Assembly: GCA_964016885.1 (NCBI GenBank)
Contig: OZ024741.1
Span: 82,088,001 to 82,152,000, forward strand
Length of the DNA stretch: 64,000 nt
Direction: 5' to 3'
Origin: Eledone cirrhosa
Taxonomy: Eukaryota
Positions 1,690 to 40,080 of this stretch are shown in pieces. Below the pieces are notes generated by a model that was not told where the DNA came from, did no database searches, and worked only from the letters and a program-made list of their open reading frames with translations. Position numbers and translations under genes: made by a program. The number at the start of each line of letters is the position of its first letter. Position 1 is the first letter of the stretch.

Positions 1690-4600
1690 AATTAGATACA
1701 ACAAAATTGAACTAAATGAATTTTCAGAAATGTTTAATTTCAATATTTCAATTATATTCCTGAAAATGCTTATCAAATTTCTCCCAAATATTTTCAAACA
1801 TTTTCCGGAAGTTTTTTACAAAATCTTTTTCGAAATTGAAAAAAGTTTTCCTAAAAAAATAAACCGAATATTTGACGCACAGATTTCACAATATTTTCAA
1901 AAGAAATTGTTAAATGTATTCGATGGAATTTCATGAAATATTTTCCTAAAATATTTTGAAAATATAAAAAAAAATTTTCGAAAAGATTTGGAGTAAAATA
2001 CATTTGTGCAATTTTCATAAGAATGATTTTACAAAATCTGAGAAAAATACGACGAAAACTTTGACATGCATTTTTTAAAATCTTCTGACGGAAATTTGGA
2101 ATATAATTTTTGAAAGATTTTGAAGTAGTTTTGAGGAATTATTTTTCAAACCTTTCCCACAAACCTTCCGGAAATATTTCCACCACAATTACGACAATAA
2201 ACATCCTCAGTTTGTTTGTCTTTTAATCAAAATTCTATTAACATATTTCCACAATATTTTCTCATAAATATTTATGAACATTTTCACGAAAACGTTTGTT
2301 TTTCAAATATTCTTCTCAAATGTAAAAAATAGCTTTGATAAATTTTCCGAAAGTGTCCTGAAGATTTATTTCAAATTTTGTTCTTAAAAATCATTAAAAA
2401 CAAATTTTCCTAAAAACGTTTCAAACATTTACCTGAAATGTTTTACAAAGTCTTTTTCGAAATAAAAAAAGATCTCTTAAAAAACTAAACGAATATTTGA
2501 CGCGAAATTTCCACAAGGTTTTTTGAAGAAATGTTTGAATGATTTCGTCAAACTTTCATGAAGTATTTTCGTAAAATATTTTGCTATGAATTTTCATTAA
2601 AATATTTTGAAAACTTCCCCGCAAGATTTTTGAAAACATTTTTTCAAAAAGATTTGTGTTAGACTTTTGAGAAAATTTAGAAAACAGTATTTGAGAATAT
2701 TCTAATAGAAATTTTCGACAAGATTTGGAGTATGTTTGTGCAATTTCGATAAGAACGTTTTTACAAAAACTGGGAAAATTTTACAAAAACATTAATATGA
2801 ATTTAAAAATATTCTAACGGTAATATGAAATCAATTTTAGAGAAATTTTTTAGTCAAATCCGAGGAAAGTTTTTCAAATCTTTCGATAAAAATTCTATTA
2901 ATACAATTCCTCCATAATTTCTCATAAATGTATATGAATATTTTCACAAAACGTTTGTTTTCAAATGTTCCTCTCATATGTTATTCAAAGTATTCTCAAA
3001 AATTGCTTTGATAAATTTTCCGAAATTTATAAATGTATTTCGAAATTGAAAAATGGTTTATAAAAAAGTAAACTAATATTCGATGCAAAATTTTCACAAT
3101 ATTTTCAAAAAATGTTTTAAACGTTTTCCACAAAACTTCATGAATTATTTTTCTAAACTAATTTGCAATAAATTTTCATTAAAATATTTTGAAAAATTTA
3201 CAATATCTTTTTTCGAAATTGAATAAGAAGTTTCCTAAAAAAAACTTTTGTATTATTATTTTGAGAAAATTATCGAAACAACGTCAGCGAAAAGATTTAG
3301 AGTAAAATATATTTGTGCAGTATTGATAAGAATGTTTTTACAAAAACTGAGAAAAATACGACGAAAACTTTGACGTGAATTTTAAAAAATCTTCTTCGAA
3401 TATAATTTTTTAAAGATATTTAAAATCAATTTTGAAGAAATTGTTTTCATGAAATTGTTTCCCAGAATTCCCCCAGTATATAAAACATATTCTCATTTTG
3501 TTGATGTTTTGATGAAAATTCTATTAAAATATTGCCTCAATATTTATTCATCAATGTATATGAAAGTTTTCATAAAACGTTTGTTTTTCAAATATTCTTC
3601 AGAAATGTTATCCAAAATATTCTCTAAAACATTGTTTTAAAAATGCCTTTGCTTTATCTCTTTGAGAAAATTTTCCAAGCAATCTTTGAGAATATGTTAA
3701 TAGAATATTTCGAAATGATTTGAAATCTTTTGACAGAAATGTGAATTAAAAGATTGGGAAATATTTTAAAATAATATCGAGGAGAGTTTTTTTTTATATT
3801 TTCTCTCCAAATTTGTATTCATTAATATATTTTGAAAATTTCACCTGAAGAGTTTTGAAAAATCTCTGTGATGGCTTCTTGAGAACATTTTCGAAAGAAT
3901 CCTTGTGTGCATTTTAATAGAAATATGTGAAAAGATGTGGTGTAAAATATATTTCTGCAATTTTATTGAAAATGATTTTAGAAAAACTGAAGGAAATTAG
4001 GGGAAAGTGTGAGATGAACTTTTTAAAAGCTGGCGGAAATATGAAATCAAATTTAAAAAAAAAATTTTAATTAGTTTCCAGGAAATTCTTTTTTATATTC
4101 ACTATTTTTCCCTACAATTCCTCCTAAATTAAAAAATAAATCCTGAATTTTTAAATCTTTTTATCAATATTCTATTAAAATATTTCCTCAGTAATTTTTC
4201 ATAAATGTTTATGAAAATTTTCAAAAAACGTTTTCAAATATTCTTTACAATGTTACTCAAACATTTCTAAAATATATGATTTGTTAAACTTTCTCAACGT
4301 CTCCTCAAGATGATTTAAAATTTTGTCCATAAACTTTTATAAAAGCATTCTTCACAAACCTTAAAAAATATATATATTGCTCAAAATGTTTTAAGAAATT
4401 TTTTGAAATTGAAAAAAATCGTTTCCTAAAAATACTAAATGAATATTTGACGCAAAGTTTTTACAACTTTTTAATAAGAAATTCTTGAATGTCTTCCATA
4501 AAATTTCATGAGATATCTCACTAAATATTTTGCAATATATTTTCATTAAAATATTTTGTAAAATTAACATCAATATTTTTGAAAACCTTTTTATTTGTGT

Positions 4601-5320
4601 TAGCAAATGAGGACATTTTCTAAACAATCTTTGAAAATATTTTAATCGAAATTTGTGTAAAAATTTGGAGTAAAATATTTGACATTTTGGTAAGAAAATC
4701 TTTATAAAAACTGACGGAAATAAGACAAATCTTTCGGATTAATTTTCTAAAATCTTCTGACGAAAATAGGATTTAAAATTTTTTAATCAGTTTTGAGGAG
4801 ATTTTTTAAAACGTTTTTACCACAAAATTTTATGATATATTTTATGATATATCCACACAATTACCCTGAAAATAAAAATAAAATCCTCAATTTGTTGATC
4901 ATTTGTTCAAATTCCTATTAAGATATTTTCTCAATATATTCTCATTTTATGAACATTTTCACAAAACTTTGGTTTTTCAAATATTTTCCTGAAATGTTGC
5001 TCACAGTTTTCTAAAAAAGAAACTGCTTTGATAAATTTTCCGAAAGTTTCATCAAAATTTTTTTCAAATTTTTATTTTAAACTTTTATACAGACATACCT
5101 TTTTTTTTTTTTTTATATTTTGCTTGCTAAAAATATTTTCAAATATTTTCATTAAATGTTTTACAAAATGTTTTAAGAAATTGAAAAAAAATGTTCCTAA
5201 ATGATCTAAAAGAATATTTGACGAAACATTTTAACATTCATCATAAACTTTTTTTTTTAAATTTATTGCCAAAAATGGTTTCAAAAATTTCACAAAATCT
5301 TCTTAAGTTTCTACGTAAAT
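1690..5320. repeat. Highly diverged AT-rich tandem repeat, about 5-6 units of ~570-770 bp
   Basis: Motif gaatatttgacg (or variant) recurs at 1866, 2491, 3074, 4441 and 5212. Motif gatttggagtaaaata (or variant) recurs at ~1985, 2722, 3294, 3934 and 4663. Confidence 0.75.
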
Positions 5321-5351
5321 TGCTGGCCTTGGGTTTAAGTTAAAATAGAAA

Positions 5352-5387
<36 letters not shown>

Positions 5388-5753
5388 TTATTATTATTAT
5401 TGGTCTAAGCGGACGTATTTTGCTCGCTCACAGTAAGTCGCTTTATTCGCCTGTTTAAATTATTTGTTGTTAAATATTTCTTGTAGACTTTGCTCCGTGA
5501 AGGGGAAAGTATAATATTTGGGCCTTTTGGCCCAAATATTTGAACTTTTTTTACATGTTAAAAAATTTACGAAGAAAAAAAACTTGGCTGAGCCACGCCC
5601 CCCAGCGATATGTCGGCTGTCGTGCGACAACGACGTAGAAGTTGAGAGGAGCGCTGCAGCGAAATTAACACACATTGATAACAGAAACACCAACACAAAC
5701 AAGGTAAACAAAGTCACCAATGATGCCAATAAGAACTCTAATTTGAAAAAAAA

Positions 5754-7562
5754 ATGACAGTAACAGCGACAACGAAAATACAGATAACAAAAAAAAAAAA
5801 TAACAAATACAACAACAATATCAACACCACTAACATGAAAACAACTAGCGACAACACCAACAGCAACAATACCAACTGCACCGAGAACAACGGTGGCAGC
5901 AAAGACAGCAATGATAACAGCGACAGTGCTAACAACAACACCAACAAGAACAACGTCAACAACACCCCCAACGAAAACAGGACCACTTTCGCTGCGGCAG
6001 CAGCAAAAAAGAGGCCATGCTTCAACATGGACCTCTCAAACAAAGATGAAAAGTTGGCCCTGGCATGGAAGCCTATCAAGCAAGAGCAAACTTGGGCCAA
6101 CTTAACTGTCCCGGTAGAAGCTATTGAGGCAGTGGAGCGCAAAACGGTGCTTTATAGATGCATCTCAGCACAAACCAAAAGGGCAGCGTTAATCCCACAA
6201 GAAGATATCGAAGTCCCGCTGACGTGCATCAGAGAAGACACCCAGTACATAGAGAGGGGCAGACAGTACGGCACCATTTCGGTGTTGTTCAAGTCAGAAG
6301 CCCTCGCGATGAAACACGCCATGACTCCTTGCAAAACCAGCAAGGTCATAATGTACCCCTCCCACATGGGAAAAAGAACGGCCCGTCTCCGCATTCCCAG
6401 AATCCCACCAGGACTTGACATGTGGTGGCTTCTGGGATGTGTGATTGTGGACGGGACGGATACAGACCCTATAGAAGTGACCAGAACGGCCAGAGAGGAC
6501 TGGTCCGGAGTTGACCTAGAGATCCTTCTCCAGATCAGGCCCGAGAATGTGAAGACAATCCCAGACCACATCCGCCTTCAGAATGGGACTGTCATTCACA
6601 TTATGACCGAAGGCAAAAGGCCGCAGTGTTTTGTTTGTGGGGAAAAAACCCATTTGCGAGCCTTCTGCCCTCAACTGCTGAAAGAGGCAAGGGGTCGAAA
6701 TGCTCCACTGCTGCCTACGCCGGGGCGAGGACCACAACCAACAACTGCACCGGCAAAACCACCAACAACAACACCAATAGAAAGACCACCACCAACATTG
6801 ACCACCCAGGGAGGAAAGGAGGAAAGGTGTCAAATTCCCCCTCCACCCCAAAAATACACACCCCAATAAAACCTTAAACATACATACAGACACACTTACA
6901 GAAACATACCCCTCATCTACCAGTAGTGAAAATGAGGGAAATCCAAAATCCCCCGAAATACAAAAAAGGAAACACAAAAAGAAAAAAACACTCAACAAAG
7001 CACAAAAGCACCCACAATAAAAAACGCAGACACCACCCACGCAAACATCTCTCCAATAACACCAACATCAACACCACCATCACCATCACCAGAATCCCCC
7101 AAACGCAAACAACCGAAACAGACGCAAGAACAAATATACACACAAACATCTGAAACCACAGACATCGCACTCGCAACAAACACAGATACAACCGAAACAA
7201 CACCACCAAAACCATCACCACTACAGTCACGCAAACAAATAAAATCACACCAACAAAACATACAAAACTTCGTGCTCGTCAGGAGGGCCAACAAGGAACT
7301 GATGGCCCTCGTAGCACGAAGTGAAAATATACAAAAAGAGGGGGAAATGTTTAAATCGAGCACATTTCGCGTGCCGGAAGATTTGGTTCTGGTGCGAATG
7401 TCGCTCGACATATGCAAAGAAATACGACACAGCTTTCCTCGGGACGTGGGAACCCCGAACGTAAAACCCACTTCAAGACTTTTAAAGGGGTTCCCAAAAG
7501 AAACCCCACTAACTATGGAGGTCGAACAACCCGACCTTCACAAGAGCCCGGAAGGTAAGTAA
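5754..7562 (+). pseudogene. ORF1 (gag-like nucleic acid-binding protein) of L1/Tx1 copy 1, frameshifted after 6869
   Basis: Asn/Thr-rich N-terminus, TFAAAAAK motif, CCHC knuckle CFVCGEKTHLRAFC, and Pro/Thr-rich tail. C-terminal piece in ORF 7272..7562. Confidence 0.85.
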
Positions 7563-7593
7563 ACCTTCCTCTCTCTCTGTTTAACCTGCCAAC

Positions 7594-10500
7594 ATGGCCG
7601 TATTAAGAGTAGGATGTTTAAATGTTCGAGGCTTGGGATCGTCCTGGAAGCGGGGTCACCTGCTCAACGACCTCAGGTCTATAGAAATGGATGTAATTGC
7701 AGTCAGCGAGACCAGGATTTCCGACACGCGCGCACTAGACCCCATTTTCGACGACTATCAGTTCTTTGCATCTGTTAGCCAGCCGGGAATGGGAGGCGGG
7801 GTGGCAGAGCTGTTTAGGAAAGGCCTGGACCTCGTGGTAAGGTCGTTCTTCCGGGACCCGGACGGCAAGTTGTTGGTCCTGGACGTGAACAATAATGAAG
7901 GTGGTGCCTTTAGACTGGTGGCCGTCTATGTTCCTACTGGGGCAGGACGGCCGGACTTCTTTAGACGCCTGGAAGCCTTTCTGGGTACGTCTCGCCCTTT
8001 ACAGTTAGCGGGCGACTGGAACGGAATCTTAGACGCACGCTGGGACTGTGTGGGAGTACCCGATAGGAGCAGGGGGTGCAAAAGCCTCAAGAACCTGATC
8101 AGCCAGTTCCAACTGTCTGACAGGTACCGACTAGATTTCCCTAATGCACCAGTGTGAACCTGGGCTAACCGCATAGGGTCATCTAGATCTTATATAGACA
8201 GGATATTCATTAGGAAAATAGACGGAAATAGTGTAAGCTGTCCACGTTTTGAAACGGTCGCCTATTCAGATCACAAGTTTGTGATCTGTATGGTTGACCT
8301 AGATAAGACGCGTAGGTTAGTACCTGGTTACTGGAAGCTAAACATGTCATTTCCGGCACGTAAGGCTTACAGGGACCAGGTCAATAATTTAGTTAAGAAA
8401 AAGTTGACAGGGGGAGTCGTCAACAATAGATGGAGGAGGGCTCTCAAAGGAGAGATTAGAGTAATGTCGATAGAGTTTAGCAAAGAAGTAGCATTAGAGA
8501 AAAATATAAAGGAGGGAGAGTTGGTAGATAAGTTAGACGAGGCTATTGGTAGTGGCATTGCAACTGATGTGCTAGCGGCGAGAATGGCATTAGAGCATTT
8601 CTTCAATGCGAAACACGAAGGTTGCATTGTCAGAGCTAAGGCGCGTGCTCTGAGAAACGAGGGAACCAAAGCTGTTCGATGGGCCCGCGTGACAGAGGCG
8701 CAGCGTGGTAATAAAACCACGATTCGGTCTTTGACGGACCGAGACGGGCTCGAGCTGAGCGATTCCAAGAGGATGTGTGAGGCCTTTCGCCAACATTTTG
8801 CTCGGTTGTTCGGGGGAAGTGGCGGGTCAGAGATGGTGGCGGACTTCAGTCCCTACCTCGATCGCTTGCCGCAACTCTCGACGGCTGACGCTGGGCGCTG
8901 CTAAGGCCAATTACTTAAGCCGACATTCAGGATGCCCTTGTAGGCTGCATGAGGCGCAAGTCACCCGGTTTGGATGGTCTGCCCTACGAGCTTTACGTAA
9001 ATATGCCAGACTTGTTTTCCAATCTCCTCGAAGCGCTGTACTGCAACTGGCAGCAAAACGGGAGTATTCCCAGTTCTGTGAGCCGGGGCGTAGTGACGCT
9101 GATAAGGAAAGACGAGAACAAGAGGGACACATTAGACAATTTCAGGCCCATAACTCTACTCAACACAGAGTTTAATATTTTGGCCAGGGTGTTAGCGAAG
9201 AGGTTGGCGCTTGTCGTCGGGGATTTGGTTGGGGAGGCGTAAACTTGCGCAATCGCAACCAGGTCCATACACGACAACCTCCAGCTAGCGATACATCATA
9301 GAGAGGGTAGGGTGTAAACCTGGCTTCGGTGGGGCTCTGATCAACTTAGATCAATCGAAAGCATTCGATAGGGTCGACCATCGGTGCCTGAAGGCTGCCC
9401 TCAAGGTGGCTGGCTTCGGCCCCGTCTTCAGAAGCTGGATCGCTGCAATGCACAGTGGCACCTGCTCGATGGTCAAAATTAATGGCCACCTCTCGAAACC
9501 GTTTCAGGTCTCCCGATACGTCCGTCAAGGGTGTCCTCTCTCCTCCCTTCTGTACGTATTGACTCTCGAGCCTTTACTGCGGAAGCTGGAGCTGTTGCAG
9601 GGCATCCCGCTCGAACCGGGACGCGGAAAAGCTGTGTCGGCTTATGCGGATGACATCACCGTGATGGTGTCGGACACCTCAGAAATCGTGGGGTCGGCAA
9701 CTTATTGGAGGAATATGAAAGGTTGACGGGAGCAAAAATTAACCCAGAAAAGTCAGTGGGCTTGCAACTCGGCACCTGGAGAGGCAAGTCCATGCCGTCC
9801 AACAGCGTCGTTAGGCGCTGGACGGACCGGTAAAGTTGCTAGGGCTTTGTTTCGGGCCAGACCTCCAGGTGGTTAAGAATTGGGACGAGGTGACGGGCAG
9901 GGTAGTCAGTCTCACCCAGAAATGGGCTGGGATGAAGCCATCACTGAAAGGTCGGGCGGAGGTGGCGAACATGTATATCGCGTCCGTCATCTACTACCAT
10001 CTGACTGTCGTCCCTTGCCCCCGTTCGCGCCTCGCCATCTTGGAGCGGCTCCTCTTCAAATTCTTGTGGAGGGGTCAGGTTCTGCTGGTGAGGCGGTCCA
10101 TCTGCTGCCAGCACCCTCTACGTGGATGGCTGGGCATGCCGTAGCTATTGATGCGCAGGCACGCGCTGAGGCTGCGGCATCTCCAGATATTCTGCCTAAA
10201 CGGTGAACAGGTGTGGTCACCGTTTGTTAGACGGGCCTTTCCGCAGCTCGTTTCTTTGACTGAGTTGCAGTCCTGGGTCAAGAAGAGACCGAGACTGGGT
10301 GACTGGCATCTGGAATGTTGCCAGGCACTCAATTCCCTCTACCAGGCGGGTAATTCGGTCAGTGGAACTTCAAATCTCGAGTTCTATAGAGCATTAGTGG
10401 TGGGCAAGTACGACGACACACTCGGAGAGGCTCTGGGAGTCAACGAAGTTGAACTAATCAGTCTGTACCGGAGGACTTTCGAGCCGGGGACGATGGATAA

Positions 10501-11008
10501 TATTCAAAAATCCCTCGCTTGGCAGTGCTACCGGGGGGCACTACCGGTTGGAGATAAACTCTACAGGCGCGAAAGTGCTGTCAGACGGACCTGCCCGAGA
10601 TGCGCGCAGAGCGACGAAACCGTTCTGCACGCACTCGTCCAGTGTCCGTGCATTACGGACTTGTGGAGTTATGTTGAACTGCTGTTGTCGCGTGTAGAAC
10701 GGATCCGGCTATCGGATGAGTCCATAGTGAAGATCGACCCGCCGCCTTCTTTTGGCCAGGAAGGGCAGGCAATTTTCCTCTGTCTGGTGGCAGTAGCGAA
10801 AGAGGTTGTATGGCGAACGAGGTTGAAAGGACTGAAGACAGACACTTTTCTCTTCGGCCAATCCCTCATCAACTCTTTCAAGTTTCACTTGGAAAGGAAG
10901 GTGAGGGTGGAGAGAGAAGTGCTGTCCCCCAGTACATTTTCTGAAAGGTGGGTGAATGTGGCGAGAATGGCCCGTGTGAGTGGGCCTACTCTGGTCATGC
11001 GGCTGTAG
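7594..11008 (+). pseudogene. ORF2 (AP endonuclease, reverse transcriptase, C-terminal zinc finger) of L1/Tx1 copy 1
   Basis: APE motifs LNVRGL, SET, GDWN and SDH. RT motifs GYWKLN, KSPGLDGLP, FRPITLLN, RQGCPLS and AYADDITV. C-terminal CPRC..ETVLHALVQC. Broken into several ORFs by stops and frameshifts. Confidence 0.95.
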
Positions 11009-11278
11009 GTAGGTAAATTTGAAGAGGAGAGGGGCGCCCTTCCAGGCTTCTCTCGAAGCGTCGGGTCGTTCAGGATAGGTGGAGTACCTGAGCGAACCCT
11101 GGGTGGTCATCCCCCCTATTGGGGAATGTTTTCTTGTAATTTTCTTGTTACTTTATTGTTACTTTGTTATTGTTACTTTGTTTATTCATATTGTTTACTC
11201 GAATTTTCTGTAAAACCCCACTGTACTAGTCTTTTGTATTGTCCCCTATATGTCGGCCCTCGTGGCCAATAAATGAAA

Positions 11279-11280
<2 letters not shown>

Positions 11281-11322
<42 letters not shown>

Positions 11323-14300
11323 GTTGCATTTTTCTTGCTTTATGTTCATACGAGTTATCACCAAGTCACAACCAGTGACCTCAAGAGACAACAAGGTCTG
11401 CCATGTTCAAGAAAGAACATACATACACACACATTCATCTTTAGGTGTTTAGACTTGTGATGTACTTATATTGACAGAATCTTCCTTAGTATATGGGCAG
11501 TTCCCATTAGTACTATCTTTTGTATCTCTCCTATACGCGGATTTCCTTGGATTTGTGATAAGTAATCATTAGACCCCTTAGGTATCATTCCTAGAGCGCC
11601 TACAACCACTGGTATTGTTTTAGTTCTCAATTTCTACATCTTTCCAATTTCTATCTCCAGGTCCTTATACTTGCTCAATTTTTCAAATGTTTTTATAGAT
11701 ACATTCTTGTCTATTGGAACGGACATATCAATTAGCAGGCATACCCTCTTTTTAAAGTCCTTCAGTATTATATCAGGTCTATTTGCATCTATTTTTCGGT
11801 CTGTTTGGATGCTAAAGTTCCACAAGATTGAGATGTAATCTTTTTCAAGTATTGGAGGTGGTTGATGCTCCCACCAATTCTTTTGATGGGGCAGGTCAAA
11901 ATGCTTACACATTATCCAATGTATGTATTGTGCAGCTCTGTCATGCATGTTTAGGTATTCGGTTGGAGATATAGGACTGCACATTGAAATTATATGATCA
12001 ATGGTCTCTGATTGTTTTTTACATACACGGCATAATGGGTTGCATCCAATGTTATTATCTTGGCTTGGTAATTTTTTGTTGGCAGACATTGATCTTGTGC
12101 TGATATAATCAGTCCTTCAGTCTCCGATTTCAGTCCAGAGGATGCCAACCACTGATCGGTTAAAGTTTTGTCAATATCAGGATTGTTAGTTCTTTCTGGG
12201 TATTTTCCATACAGAAGCTTTTCTTGCCATTTCTTAGCCAGTTTCTGTAGCAGCTCTTTCTTTGCAGTTACTTTTACTTGCTTTGCCTTTTCTGTGTCTT
12301 CCATTTTAGCAGTAAATGGGACTTCTGAAATTTGTAGTCCATTACTGTATCTTTGTGCATCTTTTGTAATGGAGTATGATCTTTTGATGCTTTCGTGTTT
12401 CAAACCGAGTTTGATCATCCAATCATGTGATTCCCTTAGATATGTAGATAATCCAATAGTTGCAGTTTTCAACGCAATATCTAACTGGATTAATCCACAT
12501 CCTCCTTCTTTCCTAGGGAGATATATTCTATCTGTATCTGCCTTAGGGTGATGCATTCTGTGCATGGTTAAGAATTTTCTAATATATGTATCGAGTCTAC
12601 GGATCTCTGTGCTTGACCAGTTGATGACATTGTAACTGTAGGTAACTACTGGTATGGCAAGCGTGTTTATGGCATCGATCCTATTCCTTGCATTCAATTC
12701 CGTTCTTAAGATTGCTCTGACTCTGCGGTAACATTCCTTCCTTATCCTTTCCTTCATTGTCGAGTGCTTGATTCCGTCTCCTTCACAAATACCTAGATAT
12801 TTGTAAGTTTGCTCTTGATCAAGTTCTCTTATCACATTCCCCCGATCAAGATTAATGTCTGAACTTTTCAGCAGCTTTCCTCTGGTGAACGTTGCTTTGG
12901 CGCATTTATCTAGTCCAAACTCCATTTTAATGTCATCACTGAACTGATCCACAGTGGATAATAGCACTTGCAATTGTTCATCATTTTTTGCAAATGGTTT
13001 CAGGTCATCCATGTAGAACAAATGATTAATGGTTTTGTCATAGAGTTTATCCATGTTTTGTTTCATTGAGCATTTTACTTAATGATATAAGTGCGATGCA
13101 GAATAAAAGCGGTGATAAAGAGTCATCCTGAAAAATTCCACATTTTTTTTCACTATTCAAAAGGAGTGTCGTTTTCCAGGTCCTCATACTGAATGACAGG
13201 AACCTCCTGACAATCTCTAAACATTTCTCAATCCAACTGTGTAGCAAACTATCGAATGCTTTTTTATAATCTATCCAAGAAATTGATAGATTTTTGTGTC
13301 TATTCTAACAATCTTCCAGTATCATTTTGTTAACCAAAAGCTGATCCTTACAGTCATATGAGCCTCGTTTACACCCTTTCTGCTCATTGGGAAATAGATC
13401 ATTTGTTATCAGGTGGTCATATGTATATTCAGTTAGGGCTGATGTTAAAATTTTATACACTGTGGTCAAGCAAGTTATCGGTCTGTAATTTTGGGGATTG
13501 TTTGTCTCATTCTTTGGAAGCAGAAATGTAATGCCGTTAACTAGCCATGGTGGTTTCTTTCCTGGCTCCTTAACTATTTCATTGTAAAGTTGGGCTAACA
13601 GCTCATGAGACTCTGTGAAGGCATTTATCCAAAAATATGGTATTTTGTCTTTTCTTGGGGATCTCAATTTGCTGGTTTTTCTAAGAGCCAAAACGCAACT
13701 GTTCAACTGTTATATTTTCCCATATTTGTTCCTCAAGGTGAGCTGTATCTTTCCTTTGTCTGTCTATCCATGGGGCATGTCCATGGGGACTTTTTCTTCG
13801 GCCCAGATCTTTTCCAGAATTCTTGCACTTCCTCCTTGGGTGGTATTGATTTAGCAGTTATTGTTGACTTGCCAATTTTTCTGTAGAAGTTTCTTTGGTT
13901 GTTTTTTAACATATTGTCCTTATAAAATCTAGATCGTTTTTCAAAGCGCCTTATATGAGATGCTTTGGCCGACACTTTTTGCTTGATTATTTCTATCAGC
14001 ATGTCTATGTCACTTGTTGATTTTATACTGTATTTTCTTTTCAATTTTCTAAGTTTAGTTTGTTTAACATGTTCACCTACTTTGTAGTTTGTTGAAATTT
14101 CTATGTCAAATCGGAGAAGGTTTATTTGGCGATTGATGTTTTCTTGCCAAGTAGATTTCTTCTGGGAATACCTTTGTTTTTTCATTTTCACTCCACATAA
14201 GTGAGTGGTGACTTTAGCCGATGCATAATAGAGATGATTTAAATCAGTAATGTTTAGTTTGTTTCTGATAATAATGTTTTTGAGAATTATGTTAGTCTTG

Positions 14301-15230
14301 TGTATTATCTTTTGGTTCTGTTGGGAGTTCTGGATCTTAGGGAGGGTGTCGCGTTCCCCCATGTCAGATTCTTTCATTTTCATCCATTCGATCATAATTT
14401 CATCCTTCAAGTTGGCAAGTTCATTCTCATTCATTTCTTTATCATTTACGATATCATTGTTTTCATTTTGAGTTTCATCTTGAGCATGCACTTCCTTCAC
14501 TTTTTCGATCCTTTCTTTAATTTGTTCTGTTGTCAGCGATTCCGCCCCAACCCTGGGATTCTAAGTGTTACAATTTACCTCGTTTTCACTGACATATGTT
14601 TCATTTTCTCTTCGCTGACTTTGTGCTAATAGCTTGATCTGATCAAATTCTATATCAGTTAATAACATTTTTTTAACAATATTTCTTCGTATATTGGCTA
14701 GTTTGTTACTGTCAATATAGCCTCTGTTGTCGGGATGTTTCTTTTTGCAGTTGATATATGTCTGTTCTGTATTCGATGTATTTGATGGGTAGTACATGGC
14801 AGTGTAGAAAGCCTCAAGGATTTCTTTATTATCTTCCCTTGACCATTTTTCTCTCTTTTTCTTTAGATGTCTTGGTGGTGAAAATAGAGGGCCAACAGTA
14901 GGAGTATTCCGGTTATGGGAGGTCTCCAGCTCCGAAGTGATGGGAAGGTTTGAACCATTAGCTGATATTTCGACCCCAGTCTGGTTCCTCTCTGAGGGAC
15001 GCGGCCCTTTTTGACCCGGGTGACAGCCGATCCAGTATGAGATTTTATCATTTGACATATACTTTATTTTGTCGCGTTTTATCCTTAACCGCCAAGGTGT
15101 AATCATTTCGTGTTACCACTTCTAGGACGAGTGTGAACCAAGATTAGAGTGGTCGTCCTCCCCTAGAGACACGGCTATTCCCCGCCGGCCGCCATCCCGC
15201 TATTTCTTGGTCACGGGGTTTTCTTTTTTG
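11281..15230 (-). mobile_element. R4/Dong-like non-LTR retrotransposon with restriction-like endonuclease (RLE), near full length, inactivated
   Basis: Single long broken ORF followed by a 3' UTR ending in (TAA)n on the minus strand. The 5' boundary is approximate. Confidence 0.85.
11466..15106 (-). pseudogene. RT-CCHC-RLE polyprotein of the Dong-like element
   Basis: RT motifs NYRPITCL, EQKGC, GIFQDDSLSPLLFC, HLFYMDDLK and YKYLG. Zinc motif CRVCKKQSETIDHIISMC. RLE motifs NRPDIIL..LIDMSVP..EKLSKY and IPVVVGALG. Confidence 0.92.
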
Positions 15231-15299
15231 TTGTTTTTTAAATTGTTTTTATCATGAGTGGTTCCTTAATGTGAGCATTGCGTGGCTTAAGAATGAAAT

Positions 15300-18200
15300 T
15301 ATTATTAATAATATAATATACTTTTTGCTGAAGTTGCCTGTTATTGTTGTTGGCTATGTCGGTGGTGGTCCTGGGGTTCACATATATTGTTTCTGAAAAG
15401 AACACAAAAAAATATTGGGGCCTTGAGCCCAAAACTTAAACTTTTTATTTATCAAACAAAATATTTATTTGAAAAAAACAACCACGGACGACATATTTAC
15501 TGTTTTTAACATACCCCTCCCCCCTCCACCACCACCACCAACACCATTGTAAGCCTTGCTACGGTTGCCAACATTGAAAATATAATTAATAGCTGTCTGA
15601 ATTATTTAGATTTGCCGCATAAAGACATGGATTTCCCGTCATTACAAATAACTGCGGGTATTAAAGCCGCCACCCCCACCACCACAATGTCAAAAAGAAC
15701 AACGAACACCACTGATACCACCACCAACACCAACACCAGAGCGAAAACAGAAACTCCCTCCCAAAAAATGATTATCTCGTGACATCGAAATGGATTCACC
15801 CAGAATCGACTCTTCCACGCCGAACACCACTGACACCACCACCACCTCCACCACAATTGAAACTAAAAATAACAACAGCCACAATGATAATAACAACAAT
15901 AACATCAACACCACCGCAAAACAAAATGTGTCATTTGCCAAAGCAGCCAAGAATAGCAAAACAATCGAGGTAAGCTAGGATGAATTAAATGAAGCCAAGC
16001 GAATGGTATAAAAAGATGGGTACAGGGTTATCACCCCCCCCCCACACACACACTTAATAAAATGGAGCATCGGCGCCTATGCACCGTATCATATCGGACG
16101 ATAAACATAAAATCATGCCGAGTGGAACGGGCATCCGAGTCCCAAATACAAAAAGCTTTGGAACGTGTGTGGGCGAAAAAACCCACATCAGACGTGGGCA
16201 GAAATATGGAACTGTGGACGTCTTCTTTGGAACAACACAGGAAGACAGAGAGCACTCCATGGTCCCATTAATCATTGACGACTTCACACTAGTCCCAAGC
16301 TATTGTGGTCAGAGACTCGTGAAGATCAGGGAGACCCACGTTCCACCAGCCATCGAAATTCCCTGGTAAATGGCTGCCGTCCTCGGCGGCTTCGAAGCCA
16401 ACACGAAAATAATCGAAGTAACAAAAGAAAAGCAGGAGAACTGGACCGGATCTGGGATGGAGCTCCTGCTCCAAGCGGACCAACAAACATTGAGGAAATT
16501 CCAGAGGTGTTAGACCTCACTGACGACAGCCACCTCACCGTCATCGTTGAAGGTAGAAGGCCTAGGTGTGTCGTTTGTGGTGAAGGAACCCACCTAAAGG
16601 CTTTCTGCGCTCAAGCTAAAAGGTTGAGGCCACCTCTCTTACCCACCCCAGTGACTAAACCATCAACACCACCAGCAGCAGAAATAGCAGCAACAACTGC
16701 AGCAGCAACAACAGAAGCAACTGTAGCAGCAACAACCACAGCAACAGTAGCAAAACCAACACCACCACCATCCACCGCTCCAGAACTAGCACCAGCGCCT
16801 ACACCATCCACCACGCCAAAACCAAAATCAACGTCTGTGGAGGATTTTCCACTCCCCGACCTATCGCAACTGGAGACAAATTGTGACGACGAGGAGTGGA
16901 AACTATCAGGAAAAAAGAAAAAAAAGAAAAAAATACTCTTCCTTCCCAATCCAAAAACAAAATACAGAGGGAAACTAATAAACTATCAAACAAAAAGGTT
17001 AGGATGGCTATGCCACTATCCACACCAGCATCACCAACCCCATCACCACAAACACCAACACCATCACCATCATTAACCCCAACACCACCATCACCAACAC
17101 CATAAAAGTCACCAAAAAGCGAAACAGAAACAAACCCACAACAAACCCACTAGCAAAGAGGTTAGCGCTTGTCGTTGGTGGTCTGATGGGAGAGGCTCAG
17201 ACATGCGCCATTCGCGACAGATCCATCCACTACAACCTCCACCTAATGCGATACATCGAGGAGAGGGTGACTAGGGAACCTGGCACAGATGGGTCCTTGA
17301 TAAATTTAGATCAGTCGAAAGCTTTCGATAGGGTCGACCACCGTTACCTAGTAGCAGTCCTGAGGGCGGCTGGCTTTGGGCACGTCTTCAGAGGCTGGAT
17401 CTCAGCCATGCACAGCGACACATGCTCTGTGGTGAGTATTAACTCTCGAGCCATTACTGCACAAACTGGAGACGTTGAGGGGGTCCCACGCGAACTAGGA
17501 TGCGGAAGATCCGTGTCAGCATATGCGGACGATGTCAACGTAGTGGTGTCGAACGCCAAACACAACGAGGAGATCGGCACTACACTAAGAGAATACGAAG
17601 CGGTGACAGGAGAAATGATCAACCAGGAAAAGTCAGTGGGCCTGCAGCTTGGCACCTTGAGAGGCAAGTCCATGCCGTCCAATAGCCTCGTCGGGCTCTG
17701 GACGGACGGACCGGTTAAATTGCTATGGGTCTGGTTCGGTCCGGACCTCCAGACGGTCAAAAACTGGGACGAGGTGACGAGCAGGGTAGCTTCTCTGACC
17801 CAGAAATGGGCAGAAGGAAGCTATCTCTGAAAGGTCGAGCGGAGGTGGCTAACGCGTACATCGCGTCCGTTATCTACTACCGCCTGACCGTTGTACCTTG
17901 TCCTAAGCCCCGCCTGACTGCGCTGGAACGTTTGCTCTTTCGCTTTTTGTAGAAGGAACGCGCTCCGATGGCCAGGCGGCCCATCTGCTGTCAACACCCG
18001 CTACGTGAAGGGCTGGGCATGCCGTGGCTGATGATGCGCAAACACGCGCTCAGGCTACGACATCTCCACCTCTTCCTCGACGGTGATCAGGTGTGGTCGC
18101 CGTTTGCCAGACGCGTCTTTCCCCAGCTCGTCTCCTTGACGAAGCTGCAGTCCTGGGTCAAGCCAAGACCAAGAGGGAGCGCTTGGAGACTGACATGTCT

Positions 18201-19166
18201 TCAGGCGCTCACAGCTCTCGACCAATCGGGCAATGTGATCGGTGGAATCTCCACCTTGGCGTTCTATAGAGGATTAGTGGAGGGGAAGAGCGACGACGTA
18301 CTTGGGGAAACTCTAGGCGTCGCCGAAAATCAACTAGCCAATCTCTTGGGAAGAACTTTCGGACCGGGGCCTATGGACAACTTCCAGAAATCCCTGGCCT
18401 GGCAGTGCTACCGAGGAGCTTTGCCAATTCGGGATAAACTCTACAGGCATGGAGGTGCCGTCAGCCGGGCATGTCCGAGATGCCCGCAGGGCGACAAAAC
18501 CACCCTGCACGCACTCGTCCAGTGTCCGAGCATTGCTGACTTGTGGGTTTATGTCGAACACCTGCTGTCGCGTGTAGGACGGATCCAGCTATCAGCTGAG
18601 TCCATCGTGAGGATTTCCCTGCCTTCTTCCTTTAGCCGGGAAGGGCAGGAAGCTTTTATCTGTCTGGTGGCCACGGCGAAAGAGATAGTATGGTGGACAC
18701 GTTTGAAAGGGCTGAAAACGAGCACTTACCTCTTCGGTGATGCTCTGATTAACTTTTTCAAATTTTATTTGAAAAGGAAAATCAGGGTAAAGAGGGGAGT
18801 GCTCTCTTCCAAGCATTTTGTTGAAAGATGGGTGAGGGAGGCAAGAATGGCCCGAGTTAATGGGCCTATTCTGAGTATGTGTCTGTAAATTAAAGATGGA
18901 AAACTGGGAGAGGGCATTTGCCCTGGTGGTCAGGGTCACTGTGGCTTTTTAATGGGCTTTCTCCACGAATGTCCCTCGGAAGTATCCCCCATATTGGGGA
19001 ATTTTTCATTGTTATTTTTTTGTTACATCCTCTTTTTTTGTTTTTTACATGCAGAAATGCCCATTTGTACCGTCCTGTATTGTCCTGAACTGTCCTTAAT
19101 GTCTACTTTATGTAAACCCTTGTGGTTAATAAAGAAAGCATTATTATTATTATTATTATTATTATT
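15300..19166 (+). mobile_element. L1/Tx1 copy 2 with an internal deletion of the ORF1 end, the endonuclease and the RT N-terminus
   Basis: 5' UTR and ORF1 (CVVCGEGTHLKAFC) are joined at ~17150 directly to mid-RT (LAKRLALVVG). AYADDV and CPRC..LHALVQC follow, with a (TTA)n tail at 19141-19166. Confidence 0.92.
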
Positions 19167-20618: not shown

Positions 20619-20725
20619 TGTTTCTACTTTAGGCACAAGGCCAACAATCTTTTGGGGCGAGAGAAAAGTTGATTAAATCGACCTCAGTGCATTGCTGGTA
20701 CTTTATTTAATCGATTCCGTAAGGG
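20619..20725 (-). mobile_element. 3' fragment of the tRNA-derived SINE
   Basis: tgtttctactttaggcacaaggcc...ctggtactttattt..atcga matches the full copies at 25.5, 33.2 and 44.9 kb. Confidence 0.75.
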
Positions 20726-24664: not shown

Positions 24665-25482
24665 TCATATATATATATATATATATAAATACAAACATAT
24701 GTGTGTGTATGCGATTGTGTGTGTATCTGTGTGTGTATTACTGCATATAAAACACTTATAGGTTTTCCTTTGATTTAACGTGTATCAATATTTGTTACAA
24801 TTTCCTTTGATGAACAAATTGTGAGGAGAATTTATCGTTTGGTGAGAGAAACAACTTACTACAATGCATCCTATTATTTTAGCCATTTCACCCCCTGCGT
24901 GTTGTTAATTCCTTTGAGAAACAGACAAACATTAAACCACTTCATTTTCCTTCTGATATGAAAGCTGAAACCTTGAACCAATATATAAATAAACCAAAAT
25001 TATTTTCCCTTTTTCAGACTTTCACTATGTATAATTGATTCTTGATATGTATTTATTTTTCCTCGGGTGAGGTGTGAATCATGAAAAAAGTCTGTGTGAG
25101 AAAATGAAGAGCAAAAAATTTCAATATAAAAAAAGAGTTGTTGGAAAATGCCAATTCTGAGACCAAGCCAAAAAAAACAATGCTTCCATTCTATTTAATT
25201 TGTTGATAATATAGACCGCTCGCAACACCTAACAAAATGTGGCGGGATTTTAACTCACAACACAGATTTTGGTCAGAAAAGACAAATCATTTCACAGGAA
25301 ATTTTAAATGTTCCGTTAATTCACTACCCTTAGACTAGTAATGTATGTGTAACTAGCAAAAGGATGAAGGTTACCGTTAATCTTTGCGGGGTGTGAACTT
25401 ATGGCGAAATATGCCTGAAGAAATACCAAAGCATTTTATCAGATGGTCTGAAGACACAATTCACCACCTGTAGAGAAATAAT

Positions 25483-25645
25483 TGTTTCTACTTTTGGCAC
25501 AAGGCCAGCAATAACCTAGTACATTACTGGTACTTTATTTTATCGACCCCGTAAGGATGAAAGGCAAAGTTGACCGCGGCGGGATTTGAACTCAGAATGG
25601 AAAGAATGCATGACGTCCGACCCTCTACCGATACTGCCAATCCAC
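25483..25645 (-). mobile_element. tRNA-derived SINE (octopus-type) with TSD
   Basis: Minus strand has A box tggcagtatcgg, B box gagttcaaatcc and tail tgctggccttgtgccaaaagtagaaacaat. TSD ctgtagagaaataat at 25468-25482 and 25646-25660. Confidence 0.9.
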
Positions 25646-29177: not shown

Positions 29178-31785
29178 AATAATAGAAATAATAACAATAA
29201 TTTCTTTATTGGTCACTAAGGCTTACATATAAGGGACAATAAACAGTACAGGGACAGCAGAGGTTGACAATAAAATAGAGTAACACAAATTAACAAAACA
29301 TTTAGCAATAAAGTTACAAATAAGTTCCCCGAAAGGCAGGATGACCACCCAAGGGCAGCTCAGTTACATCGAGGTCATCCGGGAAGGGCACCCATCTCCT
29401 ACTCAAATTAACCAGCCTACAGTCGCATAATCAGAGTAGGTCCATTCACACAGGCAATTCTCGCCACATTCACCCGCCTTTTAGCAAATGTACTCAGGGG
29501 CAGGACAATTTCTCCACCCTCACCTTCCTTTCCAAGTGAAACTTGATGAGTTGGCCGAAAATAATAGTGGTTGAACGAAAATAAAAGTGTCTATCTTGAG
29601 GACTTGCAACCTGTTCCACCACCCAATTTCATTAGCTACCACCACCAGACTGAGAAAAATTGCCTGTTCTCCTCGGTCAAAATAAGGCGGCGGCACAATC
29701 TCCCTTATAGACTCGGTCAATACCTGGATCAATCCAACACATGGCACCAGCTGTTCGACATAACTCCACAAATTAGTAATGCACAAAAACTGGACTAGTA
29801 CGTTCAGAACGTTTTCGTCACTCTGCGCGCATCGCAGGCAGGTCCGTCTGTCAGCACTTCCATGCCTGTGGAGCTTATCTCGAACTGGCAGTGCTCCTCA
29901 CCCGGTAACACTGGCAAACGAGTGATTTCTGGAAGTTATCCATAGATTTGAAAGTCTTCCGGAACAGAATGATCAGTTCAAATTCCTCTACGTTCAGAGT
30001 CTCTCCGACTGCGTCGTCGCACTTCCCACCACTATTCCTCTATAGAACTCGAAGGTGGAAGATCCACTGAAGGCATTTCCCGCCTGGTAGAGATCAGTGA
30101 GAGCCTGGCAATATTCTAGATGTCAGGTACCCAGTCACGCTCTCTTTTTGACCCAGCCCTGAAATTCAGTCAAGAAAACGAGCTGCACAATGGCCTGTTT
30201 CGCAAACGCCGTCCACACCTGTTCACCGTTAAGACAAAATATCTGGAGATCTGGAGATGCCGCAGCCTAAGCGTATGTTTGCGCATCATTAGCCATGGTA
30301 TGCCCAGCTCTGCATGTAGAGGGAGCTGACAGCAGATAGACAACCTAACCAACGGAACTTGTCCCCTCCACAAGAAGTTGAAGAGGAACCGTTCCTCTTA
30401 GGTGAGGCGCGAACAGGGGAAAGGCATGATGGTAGGGCGAAAATAGCTGACGAGCTCGATGTACGTGTTCACAACATCTGCCCAACCGTTCAGGGAGAGC
30501 TTCCTCTCGGTCCATTTCTGGGTGAAAATGGCTACCCTGATCGTCACCTCGTCCCACTTGTTATCAACCTGGAGATATAGTCTGAACTAGAACCCATGAA
30601 ACTTCACCGGTCCGTCCGTCCAGTACCCTACGACACTATTGAATGACATGTACTTGCCTCTTCAGGTGCTGAGCTGCAAGCTAACTGATTTTTCCGGGTT
30701 TAGTTTTGCTCACGTCAAACTTTCATATTTATTCAAGCAGGAGCTGACCACTTCGATTTCCGAGGTCTTTGACACCATCACGTTTGCGCCTCCCCTCCCA
30801 AGTCCCCGACGCAAAGCGCCAACATCTTCGCTAACACCTTGGCCAAAATTTGAAAGTCTGTGTTGAGCAGATTTATGGCCCTGAAGGTATCTAATATATC
30901 TCTTGTTCTCGTCTTTCCTTATCAGCCTCACTACGCCCCAGCTTACAGAACTTGGAATACTCCCGTTCTACTGTCAGTTACAATAGAGCGCTTCGAGAAG
31001 ATCGGAGACCAAGCCTAGGATCTCTACGTAAAGCTCGCATGGCAGATCATTCAAACCAGGTGATTTGGGCCAAGTACAGCCGACTAGGGCATCCCGAATC
31101 TCGGCTGGAGTTATCGGCCTTCCGCAGCGCTCAGGATAGGCTGACTAGAGACACGGTAGGCCGTCGATGTAGGGACTGAAATCTCGGACCCCCTCTCACC
31201 CCGAACATCGGAGCAAAGTGCTTGGAATTGTTCAGCTCCCGTTCGTCGCAGTCCGTCATAGACCTAATTGTGGTTTTGTTACCATGGTAAGCCTCTTCTA
31301 CGTGGGCCCATCAAACAGCTTTTGTTCAATCATTTTTAGAGCACGCGCCTTAGCTCTGCCGATGCACCCTTCAAGTTTCGTATTGAAGAAATTGTCTAAT
31401 GGAATTCTCCCCGCTAGTACGTCAGTTGCAATGCCACTACTAATAGCCTCGTCTAATTTTGCTACCAGCCACTTTTCTATTTTTCTCTAAAGCTACTTCT
31501 TTACTAAACCCTATCGACATTACTCTAATCTCTCTTTTGAGAGCCCCTACCACATGTTGCTTACAATCCCCCTGTCAAACTTTGATTAGCGATATTGATG
31601 ACCCGATCCCTGCTGTTGATGACCCCCACTGTCAACTTTTGCTTAGGTAAAGTGATGAACAGGGCCCTGTAATCTTTACGTGCCGAGAAGATGTTCAGCG
31701 TCAAGTAACTAGATGCTAACCTGCATATTATATCTATGTCAACCATGCAGATCACAAACTTGTGATCTGAATAAGCGATTGTTGA
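29178..31785 (-). mobile_element. 5'-truncated, degenerate L1/Tx1 copy 4
   Basis: Minus strand runs from SDHKFVICMVD (~31770) through RT remnants to ..LIMRL* (~29417). Ends in a degenerate (TTA)n tail at 29178-29201. Confidence 0.85.
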
Positions 31786-33075: not shown

Positions 33076-33164
33076 AATATGGTTTTATAAATATAGTTTC
33101 CATTTATTTATATTGTATATCTACTCCAAATATTTGTCGAGTGCTTTATATCAGTTATAATAAT

Positions 33165-33331
33165 TGTTTCTACTTTAGGCACAAGGCCAGCAATTACTGG
33201 TACTTTATTTTATCGACCCCGTAAGGATTAAAGGCAAAGTCAACCTCGGCGGGATTTGAACTCAGATCATAAAGGGACGTAACTATGCTGGAAAGCATGG
33301 CGTCCGACACCGATACTGCCAATCCACTGCC
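33165..33331 (-). mobile_element. tRNA-derived SINE with 18 bp TSD
   Basis: TSD tatatcagttataataat at 33147-33164 and 33332-33349. A and B boxes on the minus strand. Confidence 0.9.
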
Positions 33332-33952: not shown

Positions 33953-33989
<37 letters not shown>

Positions 33990-36900
33990 GTTTTCTTTAT
34001 TAACCACAAGGGTTTACATAAAGTAGACATTAAGGACAGTACAGGACAATACAGGACGGTACAAATGGGCATTTCTGCGTGTAAAAAAAACAGAGGATGT
34101 AATAAAATAACAAAGAAAAATTCCCCAATAGGGGGGAGACTTCCGAGGGACATTTGTGGAGAAAGCCCATTAAAAGACCACAGTGACCCTGACCACCAGG
34201 GCAAGTGCCCTCTCCCAGTTTTCCACCTTTAATTTACAGACACATACTCAGAGAAGGCCCATTCATGCGGGCCATACTTGCTTCTCTCACCCATCTTTCA
34301 ACAAAATACTGGGAAGAGAACACTTCCCTCTCTACCCTGATTTTCCTTTTCAAATGAAATTTGAAAAAGTTGATCAGGGCATCACCGAAGAGGTAAGTGC
34401 TCGTCTTCAGCCCTTTCAAACGTGTCCACCATACTATCTCTTTCGCCATGGCCACCAGACAGAATAAAAACTGCCTGCCCTTCCCAGCTAAAGGAAGAGG
34501 GCGGGGCAATCCTCACGATGGACTCAGCTGATAGCTGGATCCGTCCTACACGTGACAGCAGGTGTTCGACATAAACCAACAAGTCAGCAATGCTCGGACA
34601 CTGGACGAGTGCGTGCAGGACGGTTTCGTCGCCCTGTGCGCATCTCGGACATTCGCGGCTCACGGCACCTCCATGCCTGTAGAGTTTATCCCGAACTGGC
34701 AAACTCCCCGGTAGAACTGCCAGGCCAGGGATTTCTCGAAGTTGTACATAGGCCCCGCCCCGAAACTGCTTCCGAAGAGATTGGCTAGCTGATTTTCGTC
34801 GACGCCTAGAGTTTCTCCAAGTACGTCGTCGCTCTTCCCCTCCAATAATCCTCTATAGAACGCCAAGGTGGAGTTTCCACCGATCACCTGCCCGATTGGT
34901 GGAGGGCTGTGAGCGCCTGAAGACATTCCAGTCTCCAAGCGTTCCCTCTCGGTCTTCGCTTGACCCAGGACTGCAGCTCAGTCAAGGAGACGAACTGGGG
35001 AAAGACATGTGTATCAAACGGCGACCACACCTGATCACCGTCGAGGAAGAGGTGGAGATGTCGTAGCCTGAGCGCGTGTCTGCGCATCATCAGCCACGGC
35101 ATGCCCAGCCCTCCAGGTACGGGTGTTGACAGCAGACGGACCACCTGACCATCGGAGCGCGTCCCTTCCACAAAAAGCGAGAGAGCAAACGCTCCAGCGC
35201 AGTTAGGCGGGGCTTAGGACAAGGTACGACGGTCACGCGGCAGTAGATGACGGACGCGATGTACGCGTTAACCACCTACGCTCGACCTTTCAGAGATAGC
35301 TTCCTCTCGGCCCATTTCTGGGTGAGAGAATCCACCCTGCTCGTCACCTTGTCCCAGATCTTGTCCGTCTGGAGGTCTGGACCGAACCAGACCCCTAGCA
35401 ATTTAACCGGTCCGTCCGTCCAGCGCCCGACGACGCTGTTGGACGGCATGGACCTGCCTCTCCAGGTGCCGAGCTGCAGGCCCACTGACTTTTCCTGGTT
35501 GATCATTGCTCCTGTCACCGCTTCGTATTCTCTTAGTGTAGTGCCGTCGCCTCAATGTGTTTGGCGTTCGACACCACTACGGTGACATCGTCCGCATATG
35601 CTGACACGGATCTTCCGCATCCTAGTTCGCGCGGGACCCCCCTCAAAGTCTCCAGTTTGTGCACTAATGGCTCGAGAGTCAATACGTACAAGAGGGACGA
35701 GAGGGGACATCCTTGGTGGACCAAGCGCATGATGTTGAACGGTTCCGAAAGGTGACCGTTCACTCTCACTACAGAGCAGATGTCGCTGTGCATGGCAGCG
35801 ATCCAGCCTCTCAAGACGGGCCCAAAGCCAGCCGCCCTCAGGACTGCCGCTAGGTAACGATGGTCGACCCTATCGAAGGCTTTCGACTGACCTAAATTGA
35901 TCAAAGACCCACCCGTGCCAGGTTCCCTAGCTACCCTCTCTACGATGTATCGCATGAGGTGGAGGTTGTCGTGGATGGATCTGTCGGGAATGGCGCATGT
36001 CTGCGCCTCTCCCACCAGACCACCAACGACAAGCGCCATCCTCTTTGCTAGCACCTTGGCCAAAATCTTGAACTCTGTGTTTAGCAGAGTTATGGGCCTA
36101 AAATCATCTATGTTATCCCCCTTGTTCGGATCCTTTCTCAGCAGCGCCACCACTCCTCGGCTCACAGAGCTGGGAATTCCCCCGTTCTGTTGCCAGTTGC
36201 AGTAGACGTCCGCCAAAAGGCCTCCGAACAAGTCTGGCATTTGTACGTAAAGTTCATAGGGCAGACCATCCAAACCAGGCGATTTACCCCTTGGGCAGCC
36301 AGTCATTGCCTCCCGTACTCAGCGGCTGTTATAGGCTTTTCGCAACACTCCGCCTCAGTGGCCGAGAGCCGCGGTAGTCCGTCGAGGTAGACACGAAAGT
36401 CCATCCCTCGATCCGGCCCGCCACTGCCTCGAACAGTTGAGCGAAGTGTCGCTGAAAAGCTTCACACATTTGCCCGGGATCGAGTAGCATGTGCCTGTCG
36501 TGGTCCACCAAAGACCGGATCGTGGCTTTGTTGCCACGACGTGCCTCCGCCACTCGGGCCCATTGAACGGCTTTCGTCCCCTCGTGTCTGAGAGCACGCA
36601 CCCTAGCTCTGACAACGCAGCCTTCGTGCTTTGCATTGAAGAATTGGTCAAGTATGTCGGTCGCGATGCCTATGCAAAGCGCCTCGTCTAATTTTCTAAC
36701 TAATTCTCCCTCTGCTCTATTTTTCTCTATTGCTAAAGCCTTACTAAACCTAATGGACTCTATTCTAATTGCTCTTTTCAGAGCAAACCACCACTTGTTG
36801 TTGACGATGGCCCCCGTCAACGCCCGCTTAACTAGTTCGCTAATCCGGTCTCTGTAGGCCTTGCGCGCTGGTATGGACGCGTTTAGCTTCCAGTAGCCGG

Positions 36901-39900: not shown

Positions 39901-40080
39901 CAATCTTTTTGGGTGTCCTTTTCGGAAAACAATGTATGTGCGCTTATATATAGCTAACAATAAAAATTTTCCATAAATAGCAATTTTTAACACACGGAAA
40001 TAACAAACCTTTGCGGAGCTCGCGATGATACGATTTACTACGTAGGTCGCCAATAATAATAAAAATAATAATAATAATAA
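33953..40080 (-). mobile_element. L1/Tx1 copy 3, full length, inactivated, with an internal tandem duplication
   Basis: (TTA)n at both ends. ORF1 at ~39840-37950. ORF2 begins at 37915 (MTSLRIGSINARGLG), includes GKSPGLDGLP, HQGCPLS, AYADDV and CPRC, and stops at ~34234. Confidence 0.93.

Follow-up and report, generated by a model that had tools for sequence, protein, structure and literature searches.

Mobile elements in the window

The window analysed here is a stretch of 64,000 nucleotides from the genome of Eledone cirrhosa (2.996 Gb), taken from contig OZ024741.1 at positions 82,088,001 to 82,152,000. It contains copies of an L1/Tx1-like LINE and of a short interspersed element (SINE), which are listed below with positions counted from the first nucleotide of the window.

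5320–5401, plus strand: decayed SINE-like tail with an (ATT)n tract, directly 5′ of LINE copy 1
5403–11280, plus strand: L1/Tx1-like LINE copy 1, subfamily A, with an ORF1-like frame, APE endonuclease, RT region and zf-RVT; its frames are broken
5513–5540, plus strand: inverted repeat in the 5′ UTR of copy 1, with arms of 11–12 bp and a U-rich loop, shortly before ORF1
11255–11267, plus strand: 3′ hairpin motif of copy 1, with a private change in the loop
11281–11319, plus strand: (ATT)13 tail or target tract of copy 1
15379–19139, plus strand: LINE copy 2, subfamily B, with an internal deletion
15415–15435, plus strand: 5′ UTR hairpin
19115–19127, plus strand: 3′ hairpin motif of copy 2, in which pairs 3 and 4 are A-U; an (ATT)9 tract follows from 19140
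20619–20724, minus strand: 3′ portion of a SINE copy of the older, long form
25481–25645, minus strand: SINE copy of the short form; its target-site duplication is 19 nt long and starts within an ATT site
25495–25507, minus strand: SINE 3′ hairpin motif, with pair 2 flipped to G-C
29200–31778, minus strand: older, decayed member of the LINE clade whose hairpin end is degenerate
33159–33327, minus strand: SINE copy with an 18-nt duplication
33987–40050, minus strand: LINE copy 3, subfamily B, full length, flanked on both sides by (ATT)n
34002–34014, minus strand: 3′ hairpin motif of copy 3
39888–39900, minus strand: hairpin motif in the 5′ UTR of copy 3, ~45 nt upstream of the ORF1 start codon; its loop is the same and its pair 2 is of the SINE type
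44921–45109, minus strand: SINE copy with a 13-nt duplication

The four hairpin motifs reported in the original prediction, one in each of the three LINE copies and one in the SINE, are all found at these coordinates. The SINE-like tail, copy 1, an inverted Dong-like element and copy 2 make up a nested run. The Dong-like element, which is of the R4/Dong type and encodes an RT and a restriction-like endonuclease, sits reversed in the tail of copy 1 (11321–15300, minus strand); Dong-like families target the same tracts as the LINE, on the opposite strand. Elsewhere in the window, imperfect repeats with a period of ~625–660 nt occupy 1839–4540, and long inverted repeats with 87–95% complementarity, possibly nested DNA transposons, occupy 41893–45333. 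The mixture of RTE-, Dong/R4-, CR1- and L1/Tx1-like LINEs, together with a very abundant SINE, resembles that of Octopus vulgaris as described in the available part of PMC13282606.

The L1/Tx1-like LINE clade

APE endonuclease, RT and zf-RVT domains were found in the frames of the window. A copy with an open 1150-residue frame matches human L1 ORF2p over residues 14–864 (E = 1e-56) and R2 with E = 1e-21, in a comparison that covered the clades with solved structures. The elements combine ORF1 with an ORF2 that carries an APE endonuclease, an RT and a C-terminal cysteine-rich region, the arrangement by which the L1 group is recognised. Judged by its sequence, ORF2 is a member of the L1 group and is closer to L1 than to the other clades compared. 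The label Tx1 is applied because this membership goes together with target specificity; the homologues retrieved included no named Tx1 sequence.

The subfamilies recognised are A (copy 1), A2, B (copies 2 and 3), C and D. The C-terminus of ORF2 in subfamily D is ~60% identical to that in A, and D ends in (ATCT)n, with 4,919 exact ends genome-wide. Subfamily D also forms tandem arrays, and its copies both end in and follow (ATCT)n, a target switch in which the 3′ motif was retained. Median pairwise identities are 0.95 for Tx1 B, 0.95 for C, 0.85 for D, 0.91 for the short SINE and 0.79 for the long-form SINE. Thus, the age of the short SINE overlaps with those of subfamilies B and D, and the long-form SINEs are older than the LINE subfamilies sampled. 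No distant relatives were found in viral contigs, and none of the nine matches to the motif in metagenomes adjoins an ORF2.

The 3′ hairpin motif

The motif is real and more widespread than the window shows. A pattern with free stem positions finds 24,303 exact LINE-type ends in the genome compared to 101 for the reversed pattern, which served as control, and short SINE tails with the shared motif give 139,436 exact matches compared to none. The shared part is ~25 nt long and comprises a hairpin predicted to have 3 bp and a fixed loop of 5 nt, then GAAA at matching spacing and finally the repeat. All six 3′ ends of Tx1-like subfamilies have retained both loop and GAAA spacing, including one in which the repeat has changed to (ATCT)n. 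Subfamilies B, C and D agree with the SINE in the register of GAAA, which in A lies one base further on. Loop, GAAA and closing pairs have persisted even though the ORF2 C-termini are only ~60% identical between subfamilies. The CTCGT loop, which was described from copy 1, is not typical of its family: it is a private change seen in one of 30 subfamily-A copies, 27 of which have the family loop.

The stem was originally drawn with four pairs, but only three of them are supported. In an alignment of 14 natural copies (10 LINE and 4 SINE), pairs 1–3 are paired in every row, the outer pair 4 is open in 8 rows, and RNAalifold predicts three pairs. The first 100 LINE ends found genome-wide all have C-G at pair 2, and 94 of them form pair 3 but only 53 form pair 4, whereas pair 4 is U.U in ~40 of the first 100 SINE tails (hand counts in both cases). 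Pair 4 is also open in subfamily C and in most of D. With pair 4 mostly unpaired, the "double compensatory" change of GG/CC to AA/TT noted between the LINE copies comes down to one supported pair change. Its inner half stands as a replacement of G-C by A-U at pair 3 in subfamily B, which takes two transitions; its outer half, at pair 4, is not supported.

A stronger covariation had been missed in that first reading. In the SINE, pair 2 is flipped from C-G to G-C, which requires two transversions, and the SINE hairpin is otherwise the same as the D1 hairpin. The proposed covariation survives, but it is reduced to three pairs and two independent pair changes, a number derived from the pattern of states and pairwise identities and not from a subfamily tree. 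The covariation score of the alignment is 0.415, slid registers score at most 0.16, and none of 500 shuffles reaches the observed value, which should not be taken as a probability because the aligned rows are related.

In its LINE context, the hairpin is predicted to form with a probability above 0.5 in 24/24 copies of subfamily A, 30/45 of B, 7/12 of C, 6/11 of D1 and 11/14 of D2, and is favoured in just one of nine copies of A2. In whole SINE RNAs, such a probability is reached by just 5 of the 62 short copies and 1 of the 12 long ones (6/74 in total); in the short form, an upstream stem captures the 5′ arm of the hairpin. Forcing the hairpin in the whole SINE RNA has a predicted median cost of 1.5–1.8 kcal/mol, which a bound protein might pay.

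The SINE tail could be derived from the Tx1 clade while ORF2 reads the primary sequence or just the (AUU)n end. The hairpin would then have no role in recognition, and in the LINE it would belong to a polymerase II 3′-end signal. Such a reading agrees with the low energy of an isolated 3-bp stem (−1 to −5 kcal/mol), with the unfavourable folding in whole SINE RNAs, and with the nature of the pair 3 change, which consists of two transitions only. Furthermore, a canonical poly(A) hexamer directly follows the hairpin in every LINE subfamily, and this signal could account for part of the hairpin conservation in LINEs. However, the SINE has lost the hexamer and yet kept the loop and GAAA in register, and its pair 2 flip took two transversions with pairing retained. 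We consider this explanation unlikely. Dependence of recognition on the stem-loop is plausible, though it has no more than two pair changes behind it.

ATT target sites and the SINE

The (TTA)n or (ATT)n run at the LINE ends, originally described as a tail, is indeed a tail, but it is also the insertion target. All 40 of the 40 LINE A and B 5′ ends, the two in the window included, lie directly after an (ATT)n tract, and the 5′-end queries by which these copies were collected contained no such tract. At least 22 of the 40 tracts are themselves a tail, either of a SINE or of another member of the LINE clade. The three D-type 5′ ends examined all follow (ATCT)n. Target-sequence specificity, by which Tx1 elements are recognised, is found for (ATT)n in A, A2, B and C and for (ATCT)n in D. 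The target duplications of the LINE are hidden within the ATT tracts.

The SINE is present in at least 139,000 copies, alongside its older long form. It may be a Meta-type or octopus SINE derived from a tRNA; in a search for a tRNA-like head, ARAGORN found no tRNA in the window and Rfam gave nothing relevant on one copy. The same SINE body also occurs with other, pyrimidine-rich tails, and other SINE families that share it likely use other partners.

Insertion sites of the SINE were sampled in 975 kb of sequence not selected for Tx1, which yielded 79 short ends, 52 with a recognisable head and 27 headless ones that were dropped. Of these 52 copies, 20 carry a duplication of 7–20 nt (median 15) whose start lies in an ATT site immediately at the SINE end, and 12 of the 52 have three or more ATT units upstream, compared to a background of 0.35%. 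There are 38 candidate SINE duplications, several of which come from tandem copies. An ATT flank is seen at 16/34 sites of a junction sample, about half of which are alignment breaks and not true truncations. The SINE is found mostly at short ATT sites, whereas LINE A and B reside in long tracts. Because the SINE duplications start at ATT, reverse transcription seems to begin 16 nt past the loop, the corresponding distance in the LINE being 16–17 nt. In head-to-tail SINE runs, each copy is inserted at the ATT end of the preceding one. Very short 5′-truncated insertions of LINE or SINE tails start just upstream of the hairpin.

The probable LINE partner of the SINE

In a 3′-anchored test, in which six SINE tails were compared with LINE ends against 120 dinucleotide shuffles, z values range from 1.6 to 4.7 for six Tx1-like ends and reach at most 1.5 for nine other LINE ends, drawn from a survey that is a sample and may lack L2-, Penelope- or extinct families. 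The nine ends belong to CR1-like, RTE-like (two), R4/Dong-like (three), second RTE-type, Ingi-like and I-like families. None of them fits the SINE tail, and all of these families were rejected as a source of the SINE for lack of an anchored fit. The original prediction had named a better alignment to another LINE clade as a refutation, and no such alignment arose in this test. The similarity is weak when the alignment of SINE tail and LINE end is not anchored (p = 0.08–0.30 for A, 0.02–0.12 for B and 0.03–0.06 for D; C and A2 were left out, as their end windows ran into flanking sequence). The unanchored alignment never exceeds the whole-element null, and a chance match in a CR1 ORF scored 36, more than any Tx1 match. 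Of the LINE–SINE pair proposed at the outset, the Tx1-clade partner is thus likely, with a tail that fits 6/6 Tx1-like ends and 0/9 others, but the likeness of the sequences is slight unless they are anchored.

Several searches were directed at intermediate or competing forms. A LINE combining the SINE-type pair 2 with the hexamer was sought genome-wide, and all four matches are SINEs. A SINE subfamily with a complete LINE-type tail was rejected, as its four matches in the genome were read as nested insertions. Families with A-U or U-A at pair 2 were likewise set aside: the pattern has 556 matches, and those listed mostly resemble double transitions in SINE copies.

The SINE might also be mobilised by another autonomous element, either a LINE that is extinct or outside the sample and less strict about ATT sites, or a young CR1-like family, which likewise ends in (ATT)n and has 2,724 exact ends. 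The SINE targets are indeed shorter than those of Tx1 A and B, and Meta-SINEs of bivalves have Nimb or CR1-Zenon as partners according to the available part of PMC11481361. The CR1-like family, whose copies have a 945-residue frame and are ~99% identical, carries a 5-bp hairpin of its own that is different from that of Tx1, and its six clearly truncated copies show no short ATT-led duplication on inspection by eye. Against such an element stand the nine non-Tx1 ends that do not fit, the differing end of the I-like family, and the distribution of the SINE-type hairpin outside of its usual SINE context. The latter has 202 matches, of which 30 were inspected and proved to be 27 SINE bodies and 3 truncated-looking SINE tails; the pattern used would miss a LINE with T at two excluded positions. 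Mobilisation by another element is rather improbable.

No 3′ end matches the SINE tail better than the 5′ UTR hairpin of subfamily B does (39888–39900 in copy 3), and some match it less well. The anchored z is 4.7–6.9, with an end point chosen by the analyst, and the whole-element p is 0.01–0.09. A, A2, B, C and D have differing 5′ UTRs, each with a G/C-topped hairpin and a U-rich loop ~30–60 nt upstream of the ORF1 start. This hairpin may be a conserved translation or packaging element, and the version in B may be convergent because the hairpins of A, A2, C and D differ from it in sequence. That the SINE tail stems from the 5′ UTR hairpin (a bipartite origin), or that a SINE tail was captured into the 5′ UTR of B, with the 3′ likeness being secondary or convergent, is improbable despite these scores and the SINE-type pair 2 of this hairpin: GAAA spacing and tail agree with the 3′ end, and a chance match of similar score was observed. 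A role for this 5′ UTR look-alike as a further binding site of the same protein is about as improbable.

A model of SINE mobilisation

The LINE and the SINE share the motif and its spacing, and both insert at ATT sites, the SINE less strictly than the LINE. Because the same end motif and ATT insertion are found in both, the SINE likely borrows the copying enzyme of the LINE, and its descent from and use of this Tx1 clade are probable. The reading that we favour combines these elements: the SINE tail was taken from the (ATT)n-targeting L1/Tx1 clade and is copied by its ORF2 with recognition of the stem-loop, for which we estimate a probability of roughly 0.55.

According to this model, ORF2 would bind the loop, presented on a mini-stem that the protein itself stabilises, in a manner modelled on the endonuclease–RT linker of L2 elements (as described in the available part of PMC4176376). 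Through this binding, reverse transcription would start at the first unit of the repeat, 16–17 nt downstream. The endonuclease would nick at ATT sites, and the freed DNA end would pair with AUU of the RNA. Cleavage of the second strand ~15 nt away could then give rise to the duplications around SINE copies. The tails serve as new targets, which builds the nested clusters seen in the window.

Recognition of the RNA looks separable from the choice of target because subfamily D keeps the motif but resides in (ATCT)n. The broader proposition is that an animal L1/Tx1 lineage has kept stringent RNA recognition via a minimal 3-bp hairpin through an (ATT)n/(ATCT)n target switch and drives a SINE of more than 100,000 copies. 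This proposition is tentative, and we put its chances a little short of even.

Comparison with known LINE–SINE pairs

Stringent pairs are common for CR1/L2 and RTE elements, and L1-clade LINEs are a noted exception to the sharing of tails with SINEs; only three SINEs with L1 tails, from plants and an alga, are counted in the available parts of PMC3747384 and PMC3472496, where ancestral stringent recognition in the clade is debated. For mollusc Meta-type SINEs, the accessible sections of PMC11481361, PMC4824008 and PMC4758252 give Nimb or CR1-Zenon as partner, or assign none. Those of PMC9115989 and PMC5804259 name no further partner for the SINE, and bipartite SINEs with LINE 5′ parts are described only for RTE and Vingi in the section seen of PMC5786205. 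No report of this Tx1–SINE pair was found in the literature searched; Repbase, Dfam, the 1994 and 2005 papers of Ohshima and Okada, and supplements could hold an assignment.

If the model is correct, it adds a rare case of tail-specific recognition by an L1-type element of an animal and makes the Tx1 clade the likely driver of a large share of the SINEs in this genome. It would also offer a direct test bed for the way in which L1-group ORF2 gave up the reading of a specific tail and came to recognise poly(A). Because its stem varies naturally, its targets comprise two repeats and its SINE is so abundant, the question of ancestry could be tested in an animal by a few point mutants.

The following comparisons rest on the portions of the cited papers that were available. 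The closest parallels within the L1 clade are ZmSINE2/3 of maize and sorghum and the SINEX-3_CR/L1-1_CR pair of Chlamydomonas (PMC3472496, PMC3747384), in which an L1-clade LINE and a SINE share a 3′ hairpin with compensatory changes. In these plant and algal pairs, the end is poly(A) and 50–80 nt are shared, whereas the present pair is from an animal, shares ~25 nt and targets a microsatellite. A Tx1-group LINE has been proposed as partner of an animal SINE in crocodilians (SINEU/Tx1-Mar, PMC4494074) on the basis of target preference and age. That proposal draws on targets, ages and shared heads and not on a 3′ hairpin, and the heads of SINEU are derived from snRNA. Insertion into simple repeats by Tx1-type elements is known from Kibi, Koshi and the crocodilian (TTCC)n/(TTTC)n group (PMC4494074), the repeats here being (ATT)n and (ATCT)n. 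In its layout, the pair most resembles the stringent L2 pairs of eel (UnaL2/UnaSINE) and zebrafish (ZfL2-1 and ZfL2-2; PMC4176376), which have a small 3′ stem-loop with a fixed loop and a variable stem, and a short tandem-repeat end common to LINE and SINE. Unlike in those pairs, the LINE here is of the L1 group, the stem has 3 bp, and the binding of ORF2 is putative.
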